From an uncultured Desulfobacteraceae bacterium (lineage in GTDB: Bacteria; Desulfobacterota; Desulfobacteria; Desulfobacterales; Desulfosalsimonadaceae): a stretch of 42,292 bases of DNA. Of this stretch, positions 2,435-35,547 are shown piece after piece (within the stretch, counting starts at the first letter, position 1; each line of letters starts with the position of its first letter). Under the pieces are notes generated by a model that saw nothing but the letters and a program-made list of their open reading frames with translations, was not told where the DNA came from and made no database searches. Location of the stretch: NCBI GenBank assembly GCA_964481615.1, contig CAYZXZ010000002.1, positions 1 through 42,292 on the forward strand, in the 5' to 3' direction. The position numbers and the translations under genes are program-made.

Positions 2435-3418
2435 TCAGCGGATCAGGTGAGCGACGCAGTTTCGACCCGCTTCTTTTGCCATATACATGGCCTTGTCGGC
2501 CCGACGGATAAATTCGGTCAGGGAATCCCCGACGGCATACCCGGTAACGCCGATACTCACGGTGACTTTTTCAGGTTCCGGAACGGATAGGAAATTGTTT
2601 TCAATCGTTTCCCGGGTACGTTGCGCCACATTGACGGCTGCCGAACAATCGGTTTCCGGTAGAAGCGCGGTGAATTCCTCCCCTCCGTAACGATAGACCG
2701 AATCCAGGGTCCGCATGCACGAGACGATGAGTTGGGCCGTTTCCCGCAGGACCTTGTCTCCCTCGAGATGGCCGTTTCGATCATTGTATTTCTTGAAATG
2801 ATCGATGTCGATGAGCAGCATGGAAAGAGGGCGGCCATATCGGTTGAACCGGCTGATTTCCGTTTCCAGCTGGTGATAGAAGTGCCGGCTGTTGAACAGT
2901 TTTGTGAGGCCGTCGGTGATGGCGAGTTCCTTGAGTTGTTCGAGCATCCGGTCCCGTTCCCGGGTCAACTCCCGTTCCTTGAGCACCCGCTTTAATCGCA
3001 GCAACAGTTCCTCGAGCTTGAACGGTTTGAAAAGAAAATCATCTGCGCCTTTTCCGATGGCCTCTTCGTAAAAATAATCTTTGGTATAGCCCGTGATGAC
3101 GATGATATCCGTGTCATACCGTTTCTTGATGTATTGCGTCATTTCAAGGCCGTCCATTCCGTTCATGATGATATCGGTGATCACAACGTCGATTTTTTTA
3201 GATTTCAGGATGACAAGAGTCTGTTCGGCGTTTTCGGCGCTGTCAGCGGAAAAACCGGCGAGGCTCAAATATTCGGCGATGGAGCTGCGGATCTCCGGAT
3301 CATCATCAACAATGAGAATGGCGGCCGGCGTCAAGGGTTGTTTGAGGGAATTTGAAAGTGATGAATGCATGCCCGTATTGACATGTAAGAGTTCATATGG
3401 TATTTTTCGTATTTCCAT
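2435..3418 (-). CDS. response regulator receiver + GGDEF diguanylate cyclase
   Basis: REC domain (ILIVDDDPEIR...DVVITDIIMNGMDG...KPF), a coiled linker, then a GGDEF domain with an RYGGEEF active site. The start is uncertain (3418 or ATG 3370). Confidence 0.9.
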   Translation of the reverse strand: MEIRKIPYELLHVNTGMHSSLSNSLKQPLTPAAILIVDDDPEIRSSIAEYLSLAGFSADSAENAEQTLVILKSKKIDVVITDIIMNGMDGLEMTQYIKKRYDTDIIVITGYTKDYFYEEAIGKGADDFLFKPFKLEELLLRLKRVLKERELTRERDRMLEQLKELAITDGLTKLFNSRHFYHQLETEISRFNRYGRPLSMLLIDIDHFKKYNDRNGHLEGDKVLRETAQLIVSCMRTLDSVYRYGGEEFTALLPETDCSAAVNVAQRTRETIENNFLSVPEPEKVTVSIGVTGYAVGDSLTEFIRRADKAMYMAKEAGRNCVAHLIR

Positions 3419-5944: not shown

Positions 5945-6496
5945 ATGAGCAAAACGATCATAGACAGAATTGAAATCATGCAGGGAGACATCACCCGATT
6001 GATCGTGGATGCCATCGTCAATGCGGCCAACAAAACACTGCTGGGCGGAGGCGGGGTGGACGGCGCCATTCATCGGGTCGCCGGACCCCGGCTCCTGGAA
6101 GTCTGCCGAAAACTGGGCGGCTGCGAAACCGGACAGGCCAGGATTACAGACGGTTATGATCTGCCGGCCCGGTATGTGATCCATACGGTGGGGCCGGTAT
6201 ACCGGGGAACGGCAGAGGATGAAAAGCTGCTGGCCGACTGTTACCGGAACAGCCTACAAACAGCGGTGAGCCATCGGGTTGCAACGATTGCGTTTCCGGC
6301 CATCAGTTGCGGTGTATACGGATATCCCGTCGAGGAAGCTTGTGAAATCGCGGTGGGAACCACCATCGATTTTCTTAAAAAGAACGAGAGCATCCGCAAG
6401 GTAATTTTTGTACTGTTTTCCGACCGGCATTTGCAGGCATACCGAAGCGTCCTCGATTTTCACGCGGGCGCCGCCGGCGACAGTCAGGATGACTAA
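5945..6496 (+). CDS. macro-domain protein (O-acetyl-ADP-ribose deacetylase, YmdB-like)
   Basis: IVNAANKTLLGGGGVDGAIH...VIHTVGPVY...IAFPAISCGVYGYP. GAGGAGG Shine-Dalgarno sequence upstream. Confidence 0.9.
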   Translation: MSKTIIDRIEIMQGDITRLIVDAIVNAANKTLLGGGGVDGAIHRVAGPRLLEVCRKLGGCETGQARITDGYDLPARYVIHTVGPVYRGTAEDEKLLADCYRNSLQTAVSHRVATIAFPAISCGVYGYPVEEACEIAVGTTIDFLKKNESIRKVIFVLFSDRHLQAYRSVLDFHAGAAGDSQDD

Positions 6497-6612
6497 CCCG
6501 AATATTTTGCGCAAATGATATTGACAAGCCATTGGAGAATCACTACGTTGACATCAAAGATTTTGTGATGTTTATTAATTTTTTGGTCATAATTTCATAA
6601 ATGGAGGCTGGC

Positions 6613-6924
6613 ATGTTTGAAGTTACCGAAGCCGCACAACAGCAGGTTGCGGCGTATTTCAAGGACAAGGAAGTAAAGCCCATCCGGCTTTTTCTGAATC
6701 AGGGCGGTTGAGGAGGCCCTTCACTTGCACTGGTTCTGGATGAACCAAATGATCTGGATGCGGTTTTTGATATCGATTCCTATAAATTTATCGTCAACAA
6801 GCGACTGCTTCAGGAAGCCGAACCGGTTTCCATTGATTTCACCGGGTATGGATTTAACATTTCCTCCAGTCTGAAAAAAAGCGGCGGGTGCTCGAGTTGC
6901 GGTACGACTGACACCTGCGGCTGA
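6613..6924 (+). CDS. HesB/IscA-like selenoprotein, 103 aa, with in-frame TGA (6709-6711) read as selenocysteine at residue 33
   Basis: Absent from the ORF track. GGAGG at 6603-6607, 5 nt before ATG 6613. Translation: MFEVTEAAQQQVAAYFKDKEVKPIRLFLNQGG-U-GGPSLALVLDEPNDLDAVFDIDSYKFIVNKRLLQEAEPVSIDFTGYGFNISSSLKKSGGCSSCGTTDTCG. The TGA sits where A-type Fe-S carrier proteins carry the first conserved Cys. The frame stays open for 70 more codons, to TGA 6922-6924. Confidence 0.8.
6731..6747 (+). promoter_or_regulatory. SECIS-like hairpin downstream of the Sec UGA
   Basis: UGGUUC-UGGAU-GAACCA: a 6-bp stem with a 5-nt G-containing apical loop. The stem begins 19 nt after the UGA, within the spacing range usual for bacterial SECIS elements. 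Confidence 0.55.
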
Positions 6925-6952
6925 CCATCGGTCATTGTATCGATCGCGGATC

Positions 6953-6993
6953 ATATGGCGATATTGCCGGCATGGCGTATCGCCATATTTTTT
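6953..6993 (+). terminator. rho-independent terminator of the selenoprotein gene
   Basis: An 11-bp stem, ATATGGCGATA (6953-6963) / TATCGCCATAT (6978-6988), is followed by TTTTT (6989-6993). It lies 29 nt after the stop codon. Confidence 0.7.
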
Positions 6994-7009
6994 ACCGGCA
7001 ACGTGACGG

Positions 7010-8296
7010 TCATCCCATCCATGCGAGAATGCCGAAATAAAGTATGCTCACAGCCATTACGGCCCCGCAAGGCATCCAGAGCCGGCGGTACACGTCTTTC
7101 ATATCAGCGTTGAAATAATGGTTTGAAAGAATCAGACAGAGATGCAGTGGGGACAGCAGGACGCCTGTGAATCCCGAGCAGAGCAGGAGCATCATATAGG
7201 CCGGTATAATCTGCCCATGATCGACGGCGTGAATCAGGGGAAGGATAATGGGAAGGGTGGCGCCTACGCATGCTACCGTAATACCCGTGACCATGCCCAC
7301 CAGAAATGGCAGCAGAATGGTGATGATCACGACCGGAATTTTGAGCATCGCCAGTTCGTTGCTGACGGCGTTGACCGCGTGGCTGTCCTCCAGTATTTGT
7401 TTGAAGGCGAAAATGGCAAAGATCATATAAATCATTTTGACCAGTTCCGGCCGGACGATGATCCGTAGCAGTGTGTCCGCGTTCATGCCGTCCTGAATCA
7501 TGATCCAGGCGATAGCGATTGCCAGGGCCGTGATCAGTCCGAGTTCCTTGCCCGCCCTGAAATCCGGAAGCAGGGCCGACAAGGCCCAGCCCAGGCCCAG
7601 TCCGATAACAATGACGATGCCGATGGGAAACAGATCCTTGAGGAAGGGGATCACGCTTTTATCGGCTTCGAACGGCGGCCCCAGCCCGGTGATTTCCTTC
7701 CGGAGTTTCAGGTATCCGAAACCCGTAGCGCAAATGCTTACCGGCAGCATGCAGAGGATGAACAGGGCCATATGAACCTCCGACATCACGATGATCAGCA
7801 GGAAACCGGGATACATTGGCCACCAGTATTCCCAGATATGCCGAAACCAGTAATTGACGAAACTCAGCTGTGCGCCTGACAACTTCAGGGTCCGGCCGAG
7901 TTCCTTAACCATGGGCGCGGAAAAAATCGCACCCCCCGGCATGGGCAGAAGACCGATAATCGATGGAAAAACAATGAGATTGATACGCGGATGTGAAAGA
8001 ATGCCCTTGAAATTATCAAGCATGCGCACCATGCGGCCGGTTTTTTCCATGCACTGGCTCAACACCAGGATCATGGAGACCACAACAGCCAGAGACAGGG
8101 ATTGCAAGGACGTTGTTGATACCCAGAGGGATCGCGGGATACCGGTTACGGTCATGCCGAACAGCAAGCCAAGCAGGCAGGCCCCTATCAGGAACGCATT
8201 TCCCAGGGAAAATTTTCTGCGGATGGCCAGAAGGATGAATACAAAGGCGATGCCGACGCGAAGGACGGCGGGAACAGCATCAATCATCAGCGGCAT
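7010..8296 (-). CDS. polytopic inner-membrane permease (DUF401-like / ion-transporter superfamily; substrate unknown)
   Basis: About 12 predicted hydrophobic helices throughout. The family assignment is from memory only. Start chosen at MPLMIDAV (8296); the ORF-track start at 8365 adds a non-membrane, Cys/Arg-rich extension. Confidence 0.6.
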   Translation of the reverse strand: MPLMIDAVPAVLRVGIAFVFILLAIRRKFSLGNAFLIGACLLGLLFGMTVTGIPRSLWVSTTSLQSLSLAVVVSMILVLSQCMEKTGRMVRMLDNFKGILSHPRINLIVFPSIIGLLPMPGGAIFSAPMVKELGRTLKLSGAQLSFVNYWFRHIWEYWWPMYPGFLLIIVMSEVHMALFILCMLPVSICATGFGYLKLRKEITGLGPPFEADKSVIPFLKDLFPIGIVIVIGLGLGWALSALLPDFRAGKELGLITALAIAIAWIMIQDGMNADTLLRIIVRPELVKMIYMIFAIFAFKQILEDSHAVNAVSNELAMLKIPVVIITILLPFLVGMVTGITVACVGATLPIILPLIHAVDHGQIIPAYMMLLLCSGFTGVLLSPLHLCLILSNHYFNADMKDVYRRLWMPCGAVMAVSILYFGILAWMG

Positions 8297-8396
8297 GGGG
8301 GAACCATCGCATCGGTATTCCCCGCATGCCCCAGGACGCGGACGGGCAGCGACATCCTGAGGCATGCGGGGATGGACAGGCGTCAGATTGTGAAAA

Positions 8397-25634: not shown

Positions 25635-27212
25635 ATGGCCAACCTGGAACTACCGGAAAAGGCATCCTTTGAACATAAAATTGTTCCGGACCACGCACAT
25701 TCTGAAAAACCAGTGATCCCGAAGAAAAAAGCATGGAAAATCATTATCGCCGACGATGAATCCGAAGTGCACGGCGTCACCCGGATGGTTCTTGGTGATT
25801 ATGTTTTCGAAGGCAGATCCCTTGAGTTCATAAGCGCCTATTCCGCTCATGAGACCAAGACGCTGCTGGAAAAAAATCCGGATACGGCAATCATCCTGCT
25901 GGACGTGGTCATGGAAACCGATGACGCCGGTCTGCAACTGGCACGATGGATCCGTCAGGATCTGAATAATTCATTTGTCCGTATCGTCCTGCGCACCGGT
26001 CAACCCGGCAAGGCCCCTGAAAAAAGAGTGATCATCGACTATGATATCAACGAATATAAGGAAAAAACCGAACTGACCGTACAAAAGCTTTTCACCACCA
26101 TCACGACGGCGCTCCGCTCCTACCGGGACATGCGGATCATTGAAAAAAGCCGCATCGGCCTGGAGCAGATCATCAAGTCATCGGCCCATCTTTTCGAGCA
26201 CCAGCCACTTAAGGATTTTGCAAAAGGGGTGCTGATCCAGCTCATATCCATTCTGAAGCTTGATGAAAATTCCGTATATGTTCAACTCTCCGGGTTCAGC
26301 GCCATCAACGAAAAAAGTAACGGTGAAGATTTCATTATCCTGGCCGCCACCGGCAAGTATGAAAACGCGGTCGATCATTACGTGTCCGATATTTTCCCGG
26401 ATGATGTCATTAAATATCTGAAACAGGCGGTGCGTGAAGAACGCAGTCTTTTCATCGACGATGTTTATGTGGGATATTTTGTGACCCGCAACGGGAAAAA
26501 GAATCTGCTCTATCTGAAATACTGCACGAACCTGAGCAAGCTCGACCGGGACCTGATCCGGATATTTTCAAACAATGTGGCCATTGCCTTTGAAAATATC
26601 CTGTTAAACAGCGAAATCGTCGATACCCACAAAGAGATGCTGATGACCCTCGGGGAGGTGGTTGAAAACCGGTCCCTGGAAGTGGGTAAACACGCCCACC
26701 GGGTTTCCCTGTTCTGTCATCTGCTGGCCATTAAGGCCGGACTGAGCCGGGAGGAAGCCGATCTGTTGCGCATGGTGGCGCCCATGCACGATGTGGGAAA
26801 GGTTGCCATTCCGGATGCGATCCTTCTCAAATCCGCAGGCCTGACGTCGGATGAATTTGAGCTGATCAAGCTCCATACCACCATAGGGTACGAGCTTTTC
26901 AAATGTTCCAATCGGTCGATCATGAACGCGGCCGCCATTGTCGCGCACCAGCACCACGAACACTGGGACGGCACCGGCTATCCCAATGGGCTCAAAGGCG
27001 AGGATATCCATATTTTTGGAAGGATCACCGGACTGGCCGACGTTTTTGATTCCCTGTCACACTGTCGGATATACAAGAAAAAATGGCCCATCGACCAGGT
27101 CATTTCCTTTATCACACAACAACGGGGGCTCCGATTCGACCCCCTACTGGTGGATCTTTTTCTTGAAAATCTCGATGCGTTTATCGTCATCAACGAACAA
27201 TATCCGGATTGA
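25635..27212 (+). CDS. response regulator receiver + central sensor-like domain + HD-GYP c-di-GMP phosphodiesterase
   Basis: REC domain (KIIIADDESE...LLDVVMETDDG...RTG) and HD-GYP domain (HDVGKVAIPD...HQHHEHWDGTGYPNGLKGEDI). Confidence 0.88.
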   Translation: MANLELPEKASFEHKIVPDHAHSEKPVIPKKKAWKIIIADDESEVHGVTRMVLGDYVFEGRSLEFISAYSAHETKTLLEKNPDTAIILLDVVMETDDAGLQLARWIRQDLNNSFVRIVLRTGQPGKAPEKRVIIDYDINEYKEKTELTVQKLFTTITTALRSYRDMRIIEKSRIGLEQIIKSSAHLFEHQPLKDFAKGVLIQLISILKLDENSVYVQLSGFSAINEKSNGEDFIILAATGKYENAVDHYVSDIFPDDVIKYLKQAVREERSLFIDDVYVGYFVTRNGKKNLLYLKYCTNLSKLDRDLIRIFSNNVAIAFENILLNSEIVDTHKEMLMTLGEVVENRSLEVGKHAHRVSLFCHLLAIKAGLSREEADLLRMVAPMHDVGKVAIPDAILLKSAGLTSDEFELIKLHTTIGYELFKCSNRSIMNAAAIVAHQHHEHWDGTGYPNGLKGEDIHIFGRITGLADVFDSLSHCRIYKKKWPIDQVISFITQQRGLRFDPLLVDLFLENLDAFIVINEQYPD

Positions 27213-34754: not shown

Positions 34755-35547
34755 ATGACCATCATCGGCAAACAGATTCGCATGGAACGCATCATGGACC
34801 GCAATACCCGCAAGACCATCATCGTGCCGCTGGATCACGGGGTTTCCGTCGGACCCATTGAAGGTATTTGCGACATCCGTGAAACCGTGGCCCTTGTGGC
34901 CGAGGGCGGCGCTAAGGCAATTGTCGAACACAAAGGACTGGTGGGAGCCGGACATCGGCGCAGCGGCTCGGATATCGGGCTCATCATCCATCTGTCCGCA
35001 TCCACTGCACTGTCGCCGCATCCCCATTCGAAAACGCTTGTCAGCTCGGTGGAAGAGGCCCTGAAGCTGGGTGCGGATGCGGTCTCCATCCATGTGAACA
35101 TCGGCGACGAACAGGAAAAGGATATGCTCAATGATTTCGGACGGGTCAGTTATGAGGCGCGCAACTGGGGCATGCCGCTGCTGGATGTATCCGAGGGGGC
35201 AGAAAATCAGGGATGAATATGATGTGGAAGTAGTTAAGCATGCGGCCCGGGTAGGATGCGAAATGGGCGCTGATATCGTCAAGGTCTCCTACACCGGTTC
35301 GCCGGAAACCTTTCGCCGGGTGGTTGAAGGAAGCACCGTGCCGGTGGTTATTGCAGGCGGGGCAAAGATGGGATCGGATCGCGATATTCTTGAGATGGTT
35401 AGAGGCGCCATGGATGCCGGGGCAGCAGGCGCATCCATCGGCCGAAATGTTTTCCAGCATGTTGACCCTCCTCGTATGGTCAGGGCCATGGCAAAAATCA
35501 TCTTTGAAAACGCCTCGGTGGACGCTGCCCTACAAATACTGGAATAG
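34755..35547 (+). pseudogene. aroA': 2-amino-3,7-dideoxy-D-threo-hept-6-ulosonate synthase (class I aldolase, DhnA/FbaB family), interrupted by a +1 frame change near 35184
   Basis: ORFs 34755-35216 and 35131-35547 are the N- and C-terminal halves of one ~265-aa enzyme. Frame 0 reads ...NWGMPLL then [10 protein letters not shown]-stop. The +1 frame reads [38 protein letters not shown] from ATG 35185. The cause could be a sequencing indel, a real pseudogene or a split gene. Confidence 0.8.

Follow-up and report, generated by a model that had tools for sequence, protein, structure and literature searches.

The cataloguing of HesB-like selenoproteins goes back to the mid-2000s (PMC1088965, PMC1794560), and the current review gives UxGP as their motif (PMC13188914 Table 1). 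They are among the selenoproteins in which the Deltaproteobacteria are rich (PMC1794560, PMC1976440), and the Methanococcus maripaludis member has been confirmed by 75Se labeling (PMC1794560, PMC11097638). Structures resembling a SECIS and regarded as its remnants have been described in the forms that carry cysteine (Cys) in place of selenocysteine (Sec; PMC13188914, PMC1794560). A published account calls the function of HesB-like selenoproteins "not clear," that of the 75Se-confirmed archaeal protein included (PMC11097638).

We analyzed a stretch of 42,292 nt from an uncultured Desulfobacteraceae bacterium, called the window in the following, and found in it a gene of the NCBIfam family NF038090 (IscA_HesB_Se). 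The initial annotation had considered the family probably not new, and indeed the kind of selenoprotein is already known: NCBI maintains an HMM dedicated to precisely this subfamily, with "_Se" in its name, and we detected no difference between the window gene and that family. In the literature searched, no paper citing the accession NF038090 was found, and the Desulfobacterales subfamily, with its CxxC tail and minimal SECIS, is thus curated but without a description in print there. The locus holds no new biology, HesB-like selenoproteins having been known for about two decades. Its main value lies in annotation: gene callers cut the gene into stubs of 32 aa and ~64 aa or read the UGA as Trp (code 4). 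We estimate at roughly 90% the probability that positions 6613-6924 of the forward strand are a monocistronic gene for a 103-aa NF038090 selenoprotein and that the UGA at 6709-6711 is recoded as Sec.

Gene structure and family membership

Table 1. Positions in the window of the gene and the sequence elements associated with it
Feature	Positions	Strand	Basis
-35 box TTGACA of a putative sigma-70-type promoter	6521..6526	+	Invariant in 16/16 aligned upstream regions
Putative -10 box TACGTT, 17 nt past the -35 box	6544..6549	+	TAnnTT at the same spacing in 16 loci
Shine-Dalgarno sequence GGAGG, 5 nt before the ATG	6603..6607	+	Conserved in 16 aligned loci
CDS of the 103-aa IscA/HesB family protein, predicted to contain Sec	6613..6924	+	Stop codon included; NF038090 match, frame kept in 82 related loci
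In-frame UGA, candidate Sec33, at the first cluster-ligand Cys position of A-type carriers	6709..6711	+	TGA/Cys alternation in 83 loci; aligns to PDB 1nwb and 1r94
Candidate SECIS hairpin, 5-bp stem 6732-6736/6742-6746, loop U6737-G-G-A-U6741	6732..6746	+	Covariation, RNAalifold
C-terminal Cys cluster C93-S-S-C96-G-T-T-D-T-C102	6889..6918	+	Conservation among 28 diverse members
Intrinsic terminator: stem at 6953-6988, then a U-run	6953..6994	+	12+3-bp stem, -27.4 kcal/mol, z = -2.13

The reading frame starts with an ATG at 6613-6615, ends with a TGA at 6922-6924, and contains a single in-frame TGA (Table 1). Its read-through product of 103 aa is MFEVTEAAQQQVAAYFKDKEVKPIRLFLNQGG-U-GGPSLALVLDEP...GGCSSCGTTDTCG, where the local context of position 33 reads ...IRLFLNQGG-U-GGPSLALVLDEP. 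At this locus, the mechanical list of open reading frames (ORFs) holds only a forward-strand stub of 36 aa (6601-6711) and an antisense ORF of 77 aa (6721-6954); the latter was rejected as a real gene, the codon-position variation fitting the forward strand. The initial annotation had described a gene hidden from the ORF list and split by the TGA, with a 103-aa read-through product, a GGAGG and a terminator of its own, and all the sequence features it listed are present where it had placed them.

The promoter boxes, the Shine-Dalgarno sequence, and the terminator together suggest that the gene is an independent, monocistronic transcription unit with a putative promoter. The -10 box agrees with the consensus at three of six positions, which is under the threshold of the consensus scan. 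The inner terminator stem was also picked up by the terminator scan, and the next gene, encoding a DUF401 protein (7010-8365), is convergent. A second TTGACA, located 27 nt from the first at 6548-6553 and overlapping the -10 region, occurs in the window alone, apart from a partial copy in its nearest relative (TTGACC in locus L001); of the two, the first is the conserved one.

For the profile scoring, Cys was substituted for Sec in the window protein. NF038090 was matched from end to end, residues 1-95 aligning with profile positions 1-101 of 101, at 108.4 bits (E = 1.8e-31; cutoff 85), and the same model was the top-scoring one for all 28 diverse orthologues studied. The Pfam domain PF01521 (Fe-S_biosyn, the HesB/IscA domain) matched residues 3-81 at 29.6 bits, above its gathering threshold of 26.3, and the HesB/IscA-like identity first proposed for the protein is thereby borne out. 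The TIGRFAMs family of HesB-like selenoproteins that had been named at the same time was the right kind of protein but not the right family: TIGR01911 (HesB_rel_seleno) scored 27.8 bits against a cutoff of 66.35 and covered residues 6-75 only, so the window protein is related to that family but is not a member of it. The two have a common superfamily, Sec at the same ligand-Cys position, a similar alternation of Sec and Cys among homologues, and the UxGP motif, present here as U33-G-G-P36; the window subfamily differs in its C-terminal CxxC(x5C) tail, which extends beyond the TIGR01911 match. The models for the A-type carriers IscA, SufA, and ErpA, namely TIGR00049 (33.5 bits, cutoff 58.8), TIGR02011 (31.9 bits, cutoff 150.6), and TIGR01997 (26.8 bits, cutoff 136.2) all remained below their thresholds. 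Among the 28 diverse members, U/C33 and P36 are invariant and G35 is found in at least 90%; in the tail, C96 is invariant, C93 is present in at least 90%, and C102 is common yet missing from the Desulfosarcina-type clade.

In the PDB, the window protein has sequence matches to Aquifex Aq_1857 and to IscA and SufA of E. coli. In Aq_1857 and E. coli IscA (PDB 1nwb and 1r94), the residue aligned with position 33 is the Cys of the GGC(S)G loop, in agreement with the original placement of the UGA at the first conserved Cys of HesB/IscA proteins, and the C-terminal Cys residues align with the tail cysteines of all three proteins. As a proxy for the fold, we used the AlphaFold (AF2) model of P0011, the closest natural Cys form, which is 62% identical to the window protein; its mean pLDDT is 80, and the C-terminal tail, modeled with low confidence, was taken as disordered. 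Compared with IscA (1r94/1s98 and, with a bound [2Fe-2S] cluster, 1x0g), SufA (2d2a), and DsrR, the model gave TM scores of 0.6-0.74, those with 1r94/1s98 being 0.67-0.74. The Cys-form proxy has the IscA fold and the three-ligand layout of the A-type carriers IscA, SufA, and ErpA, in which the GGC(S)G loop supplies a single Cys and the flexible C-terminal tail the other two. The window protein is thus predicted to have an IscA/SufA-like fold with Sec in place of the first cluster-ligand Cys. Unlike the A-type carriers, it would have Sec as the first ligand, its tail has the spacing CxxC and not CxC, and it scores below every curated cutoff for them; its gene lies outside an isc/suf operon, is monocistronic, and adjoins a Macro-domain gene.

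Orthologues and the codon at position 33

The orthologue set consisted of 83 loci, 80 of which came from a scan of one genome per species, the others being the window itself and the loci L001 and L002. All 80 scanned loci belong to Desulfobacterales, and L001, a Logan contig, is fully syntenic with the window (LepA-NDK-Macro-[gene]-DUF401-HU-PilD-Lon). Codon 33 is TGA in 69 of the 83 loci, TGC in 13, and TGT in one, and both the frame and the protein sequence are kept on the two sides of the TGA at 43-89% identity. The initial annotation expected homologues that cover both halves with Cys or Sec aligned, as opposed to matches in one half only or a frame that is not conserved; the codon is Cys or TGA throughout, and the frame is kept in the 82 related loci. 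An in-frame UGA aligned with Cys homologues and accompanied by conservation on both sides is the pattern by which bacterial selenoproteins are recognized, and it is the pattern seen here. On a neighbor-joining tree, there are no fewer than three changes between the Sec and Cys states. Upstream as well as downstream of the TGA, the entropy of third codon positions is far greater than that of first and second positions. Since the variation is dominated by third positions on both sides, both halves are translated, and the same pattern indicates that both are under purifying selection.

The protein search returned matches of three types: full-length proteins with Cys33, proteins with W33, and fragments that end before or start after position 33. 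Standard callers had been expected to miss or truncate the gene, and both fragments and mistranslations can be seen in public protein collections. The gene calls of L001 are pieces of 32 aa and 64 aa flanking the same TGA, and the database entries P0039, P0052, P0066, and P0067 are N- or C-terminal fragments of the family. Entries with W at the Sec position (P0001-P0006, P0010, P0019, P0037, P0057, P0059, and P0063) are public metagenome predictions and point to code 4 having been applied to short contigs, with confirmation at the DNA level for P0057 only. The locus encoding P0057, L002, reads TGA at this position, and its DNA does not yield the database sequence under code 11; the W of P0057 is an artifact of a code-4 gene call. 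One Cys-form member, from Desulfonema ishimotonii, goes under the name "adhesin" in both GenBank and UniRef.

The hairpin downstream of the UGA

A 6-bp hairpin with the apical loop UGGAU had been noted 19 nt downstream of the UGA. The position and the loop hold, but the conserved stem has 5 bp, formed by the pairs G6732-C6746, G6733-C6745, U6734-A6744, U6735-A6743, and C6736-G6742. The window sequence allows the additional pair U6731-A6747 (UGGUUC-UGGAU-GAACCA at 6731-6747, starting 19 nt past the UGA), and this sixth pair is not conserved, being unpaired in 18 of 68 distinct orthologues. All 69 Sec forms read GG(U/C)UC-UGGA(U/C)-GA(A/G)CC at 6732-6746, and RNAalifold, applied without a hint to the 72 nt around the UGA, predicted exactly the 5-bp hairpin and nothing else.

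Taken by itself, the hairpin of the window is within chance (z = -0.22 vs. shuffles for the 60 nt from the UGA). Among the 1627 TGA triplets of the window, 33% precede a hairpin with 5 bp or more that fits the published rules for loop, G, and spacing, and 4.8% precede one at least as stable. We relied on comparative analysis because the single-sequence fold started at 6700 showed a competing stem (z = -0.02), and it is the comparison of orthologues, not the window sequence alone, that identifies the element as real. No Rfam family matched over the whole window at gathering thresholds, and a permissive scan of 6500-7050 gave no SECIS family, its top match being a spurious antisense plant miRNA.

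At the pair 6734:6744, the 69 Sec forms divide into 22 with U:A and 47 with C:G, with no mismatches; without exception, Val GUU at codon 41 goes with Glu GAA at codon 44, and Ala GCU with the synonymous GAG. The same wobble base is free in the 14 Cys forms (C/G in eight, C/A in five, and C/T in one). None of 500 column shuffles reached the observed covariation or pairing, and pairing dropped from 95% to 16-53% when the 3' arm was slid by 1-3 nt. According to the neighbor-joining tree, there were at least two independent switches between U:A and C:G, one in the main clade together with L033 and another in L002. The covariation thus amounts to a single base pair and some two evolutionary events.

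The third codon positions delimit the element further. Codons +1 to +6 and those from +12 onward have third-position entropies of 1.2-1.9 bits, and for codons +7 to +10 the values, in bits, are 0.00, 0.11, 0.00, and 0.47; codon +11, with 0.90 bits, contains the covarying base. This freeze of synonymous sites is confined to the hairpin and outlines it to the nucleotide. The mean hairpin energy is -8.1 kcal/mol for the Sec forms and +1.9 for the Cys forms, and the hairpin is part of the minimum free energy (MFE) fold of the region from the UGA to +57 in 54 of the 69 Sec forms, the window included, and in none of the 14 Cys forms.

The published bacterial SECIS model, as given in a figure legend (PMC13188914 Fig. 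2 legend), has an apical loop of 3-9 nt (5 nt here), an upper stem of 4-16 bp (5 bp conserved here), a G in the first two loop positions (here at position 2, followed by another G), a distance of 16-37 nt from the UGA to the loop (25 nt here), and an MFE of -7.5 kcal/mol or lower (-14.4 for the UGA to +57 in the window, and at or below -7.5 in all 69 Sec forms). The compatibility with bacterial SECIS spacing that had been suggested thus extends to all the published constraints, and loop, stem, G, spacing, and MFE agree with the consensus (Zhang & Gladyshev; PMC13188914 Fig. 2A). What differs from that consensus is that only a minimal upper hairpin is conserved here. The SECIS of E. coli fdhF has a lower stem and a bulged U, and these have no conserved counterpart in the window element. 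Combined with NF038090, the diagnostic pattern UGA-N20-GGYUC-UGGAY-GARCC would give correct gene calls across Desulfobacterales.

Two Cys-form genes, in L022 (1701-1766) and L065 (1422-1487), lie within or beside Sec clades. The former, with TGT, retains four of the five hairpin pairs (GACUC/GAGCC), possibly as a remnant SECIS like that of a Desulfitobacterium HesB-like protein; in the latter, with TGC, the hairpin has been lost.

Decoding of the UGA and candidate function

The 42-kb window, with ~40 annotated ORFs, contains no selA, selB, selD, or tRNA-Sec, and no other selenoprotein turned up among those ORFs; the flanks of the fetched related loci contain no tRNA-Sec either. We infer the competence of the organism for Sec decoding from the conserved TGA and SECIS and from its relatives, the selenoprotein-rich Deltaproteobacteria.

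The same SECIS/SelB route could also insert Cys at the UGA, either because CysRS charges a tRNASec-like tRNA or because selenium is limiting. SECIS/SelB-dependent Cys insertion by a tRNASec-like tRNA was reported in 2018, as cited in PMC13582414, and the 14 natural orthologues with Cys at position 33 show that this residue is tolerated. However, TGA is kept at 69 of the 83 loci over deep divergence and has not drifted to TGC or TGT, which is hard to explain if the product contained plain Cys, and neither the window nor the fetched loci hold a tRNASec-like tRNA. From this lasting retention of TGA in 69 lineages we argue that the product differs from plain Cys, and we regard insertion of Cys as highly improbable. 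A nonsense mutation making the locus a pseudogene, or else two unrelated small ORFs, with the hairpin coincidental, would fit the fragments of 32 aa and 64 aa produced by callers and a single-sequence hairpin within chance; this is refuted by the comparative data, as 69 loci with protein identities of 43-89% share the TGA, both halves vary mainly at third positions as expected under purifying selection, the promoter, Shine-Dalgarno sequence, and terminator are conserved, and the hairpin covaries, leaving this reading a negligible probability. Equally little weight falls on a genome-wide reassignment by which TGA would mean Trp (code 4) or Gly (code 25), which the W at position 33 of many database homologues might suggest but which is refuted by the stop-codon usage of the window, where TGA is a normal stop that ends 11 of 30 large family-supported ORFs and the Sec-HesB gene itself; moreover, homologues with a sense codon have Cys at the DNA level and never Trp, the one W protein checked against its DNA (P0057) has TGA there and a database sequence that does not match under code 11, and every host belongs to Desulfobacterales.

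With recoding of the UGA as Sec, the hairpin whose loop begins 25 nt past the UGA would act as a bacterial SECIS for SelB-GTP-Sec-tRNASec, and that complex would deliver Sec to the A site of the ribosome. Stem and loop lie within the codons of the conserved peptide L-(V/A)-L-D-E, and the constraints on protein and RNA therefore overlap. The case is a clear one, as a single RNA base pair is preserved by matching changes in a Val/Ala codon and, synonymously, in a Glu codon. In the protein, Sec33 would stand in for the first of the three cluster-ligand cysteines, and C93 and C96 in the flexible C-terminal tail may stand in for the other two. Most likely, the product would use a selenolate ligand to bind an Fe-S cluster (or iron) and then pass it on, a carrier role suggested by homology. 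We consider it improbable that the Desulfobacterales subfamily, instead of being a generic Fe-S carrier, is a selenolate-ligated handler of clusters or metals having a dedicated role linked to the Macro-domain gene. As a separate matter, its very small SECIS of 5 bp plus UGGAY, coded wholly by L-(V/A)-L-D-E, would make an exceptionally clean minimal element for SelB binding in nature.

Immediately upstream of the Sec-HesB gene lies a Macro-domain gene (PF01661, 156 bits) at 5945-6496 on the forward strand. The two genes are found in this order and on the same strand in 38 of the 82 related loci, the Cys-form locus L065 among them, and the linkage persists at many loci without the LepA/NDK/PilD/Lon synteny. 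The gap between them is ~120-320 nt in several loci and ~1.1 kb in L014. Since the selenoprotein gene has its own conserved putative promoter, a functional link between the two is no more than possible.

Elsewhere in the window, a DeoC/LacD-family aldolase is split over two frames at 34755-35547 (+), the part at 34755-35216 covering profile positions 1-129 of 229 and that at 35131-35547 positions 131-229. Its place just upstream of 3-dehydroquinate synthase II, aroA, aroK, and aroC makes it the probable ADH synthase of the alternative route into the shikimate pathway, and the apparent frameshift would be an assembly error or a mark of a pseudogene. A receiver-GGDEF protein at 2435-3418 (-) and a protein combining a response-regulator receiver, DUF3369, and an HD-GYP-type domain (HD_5) at 25635-27212 (+) represent two c-di-GMP signaling genes in a window that otherwise contains housekeeping genes.
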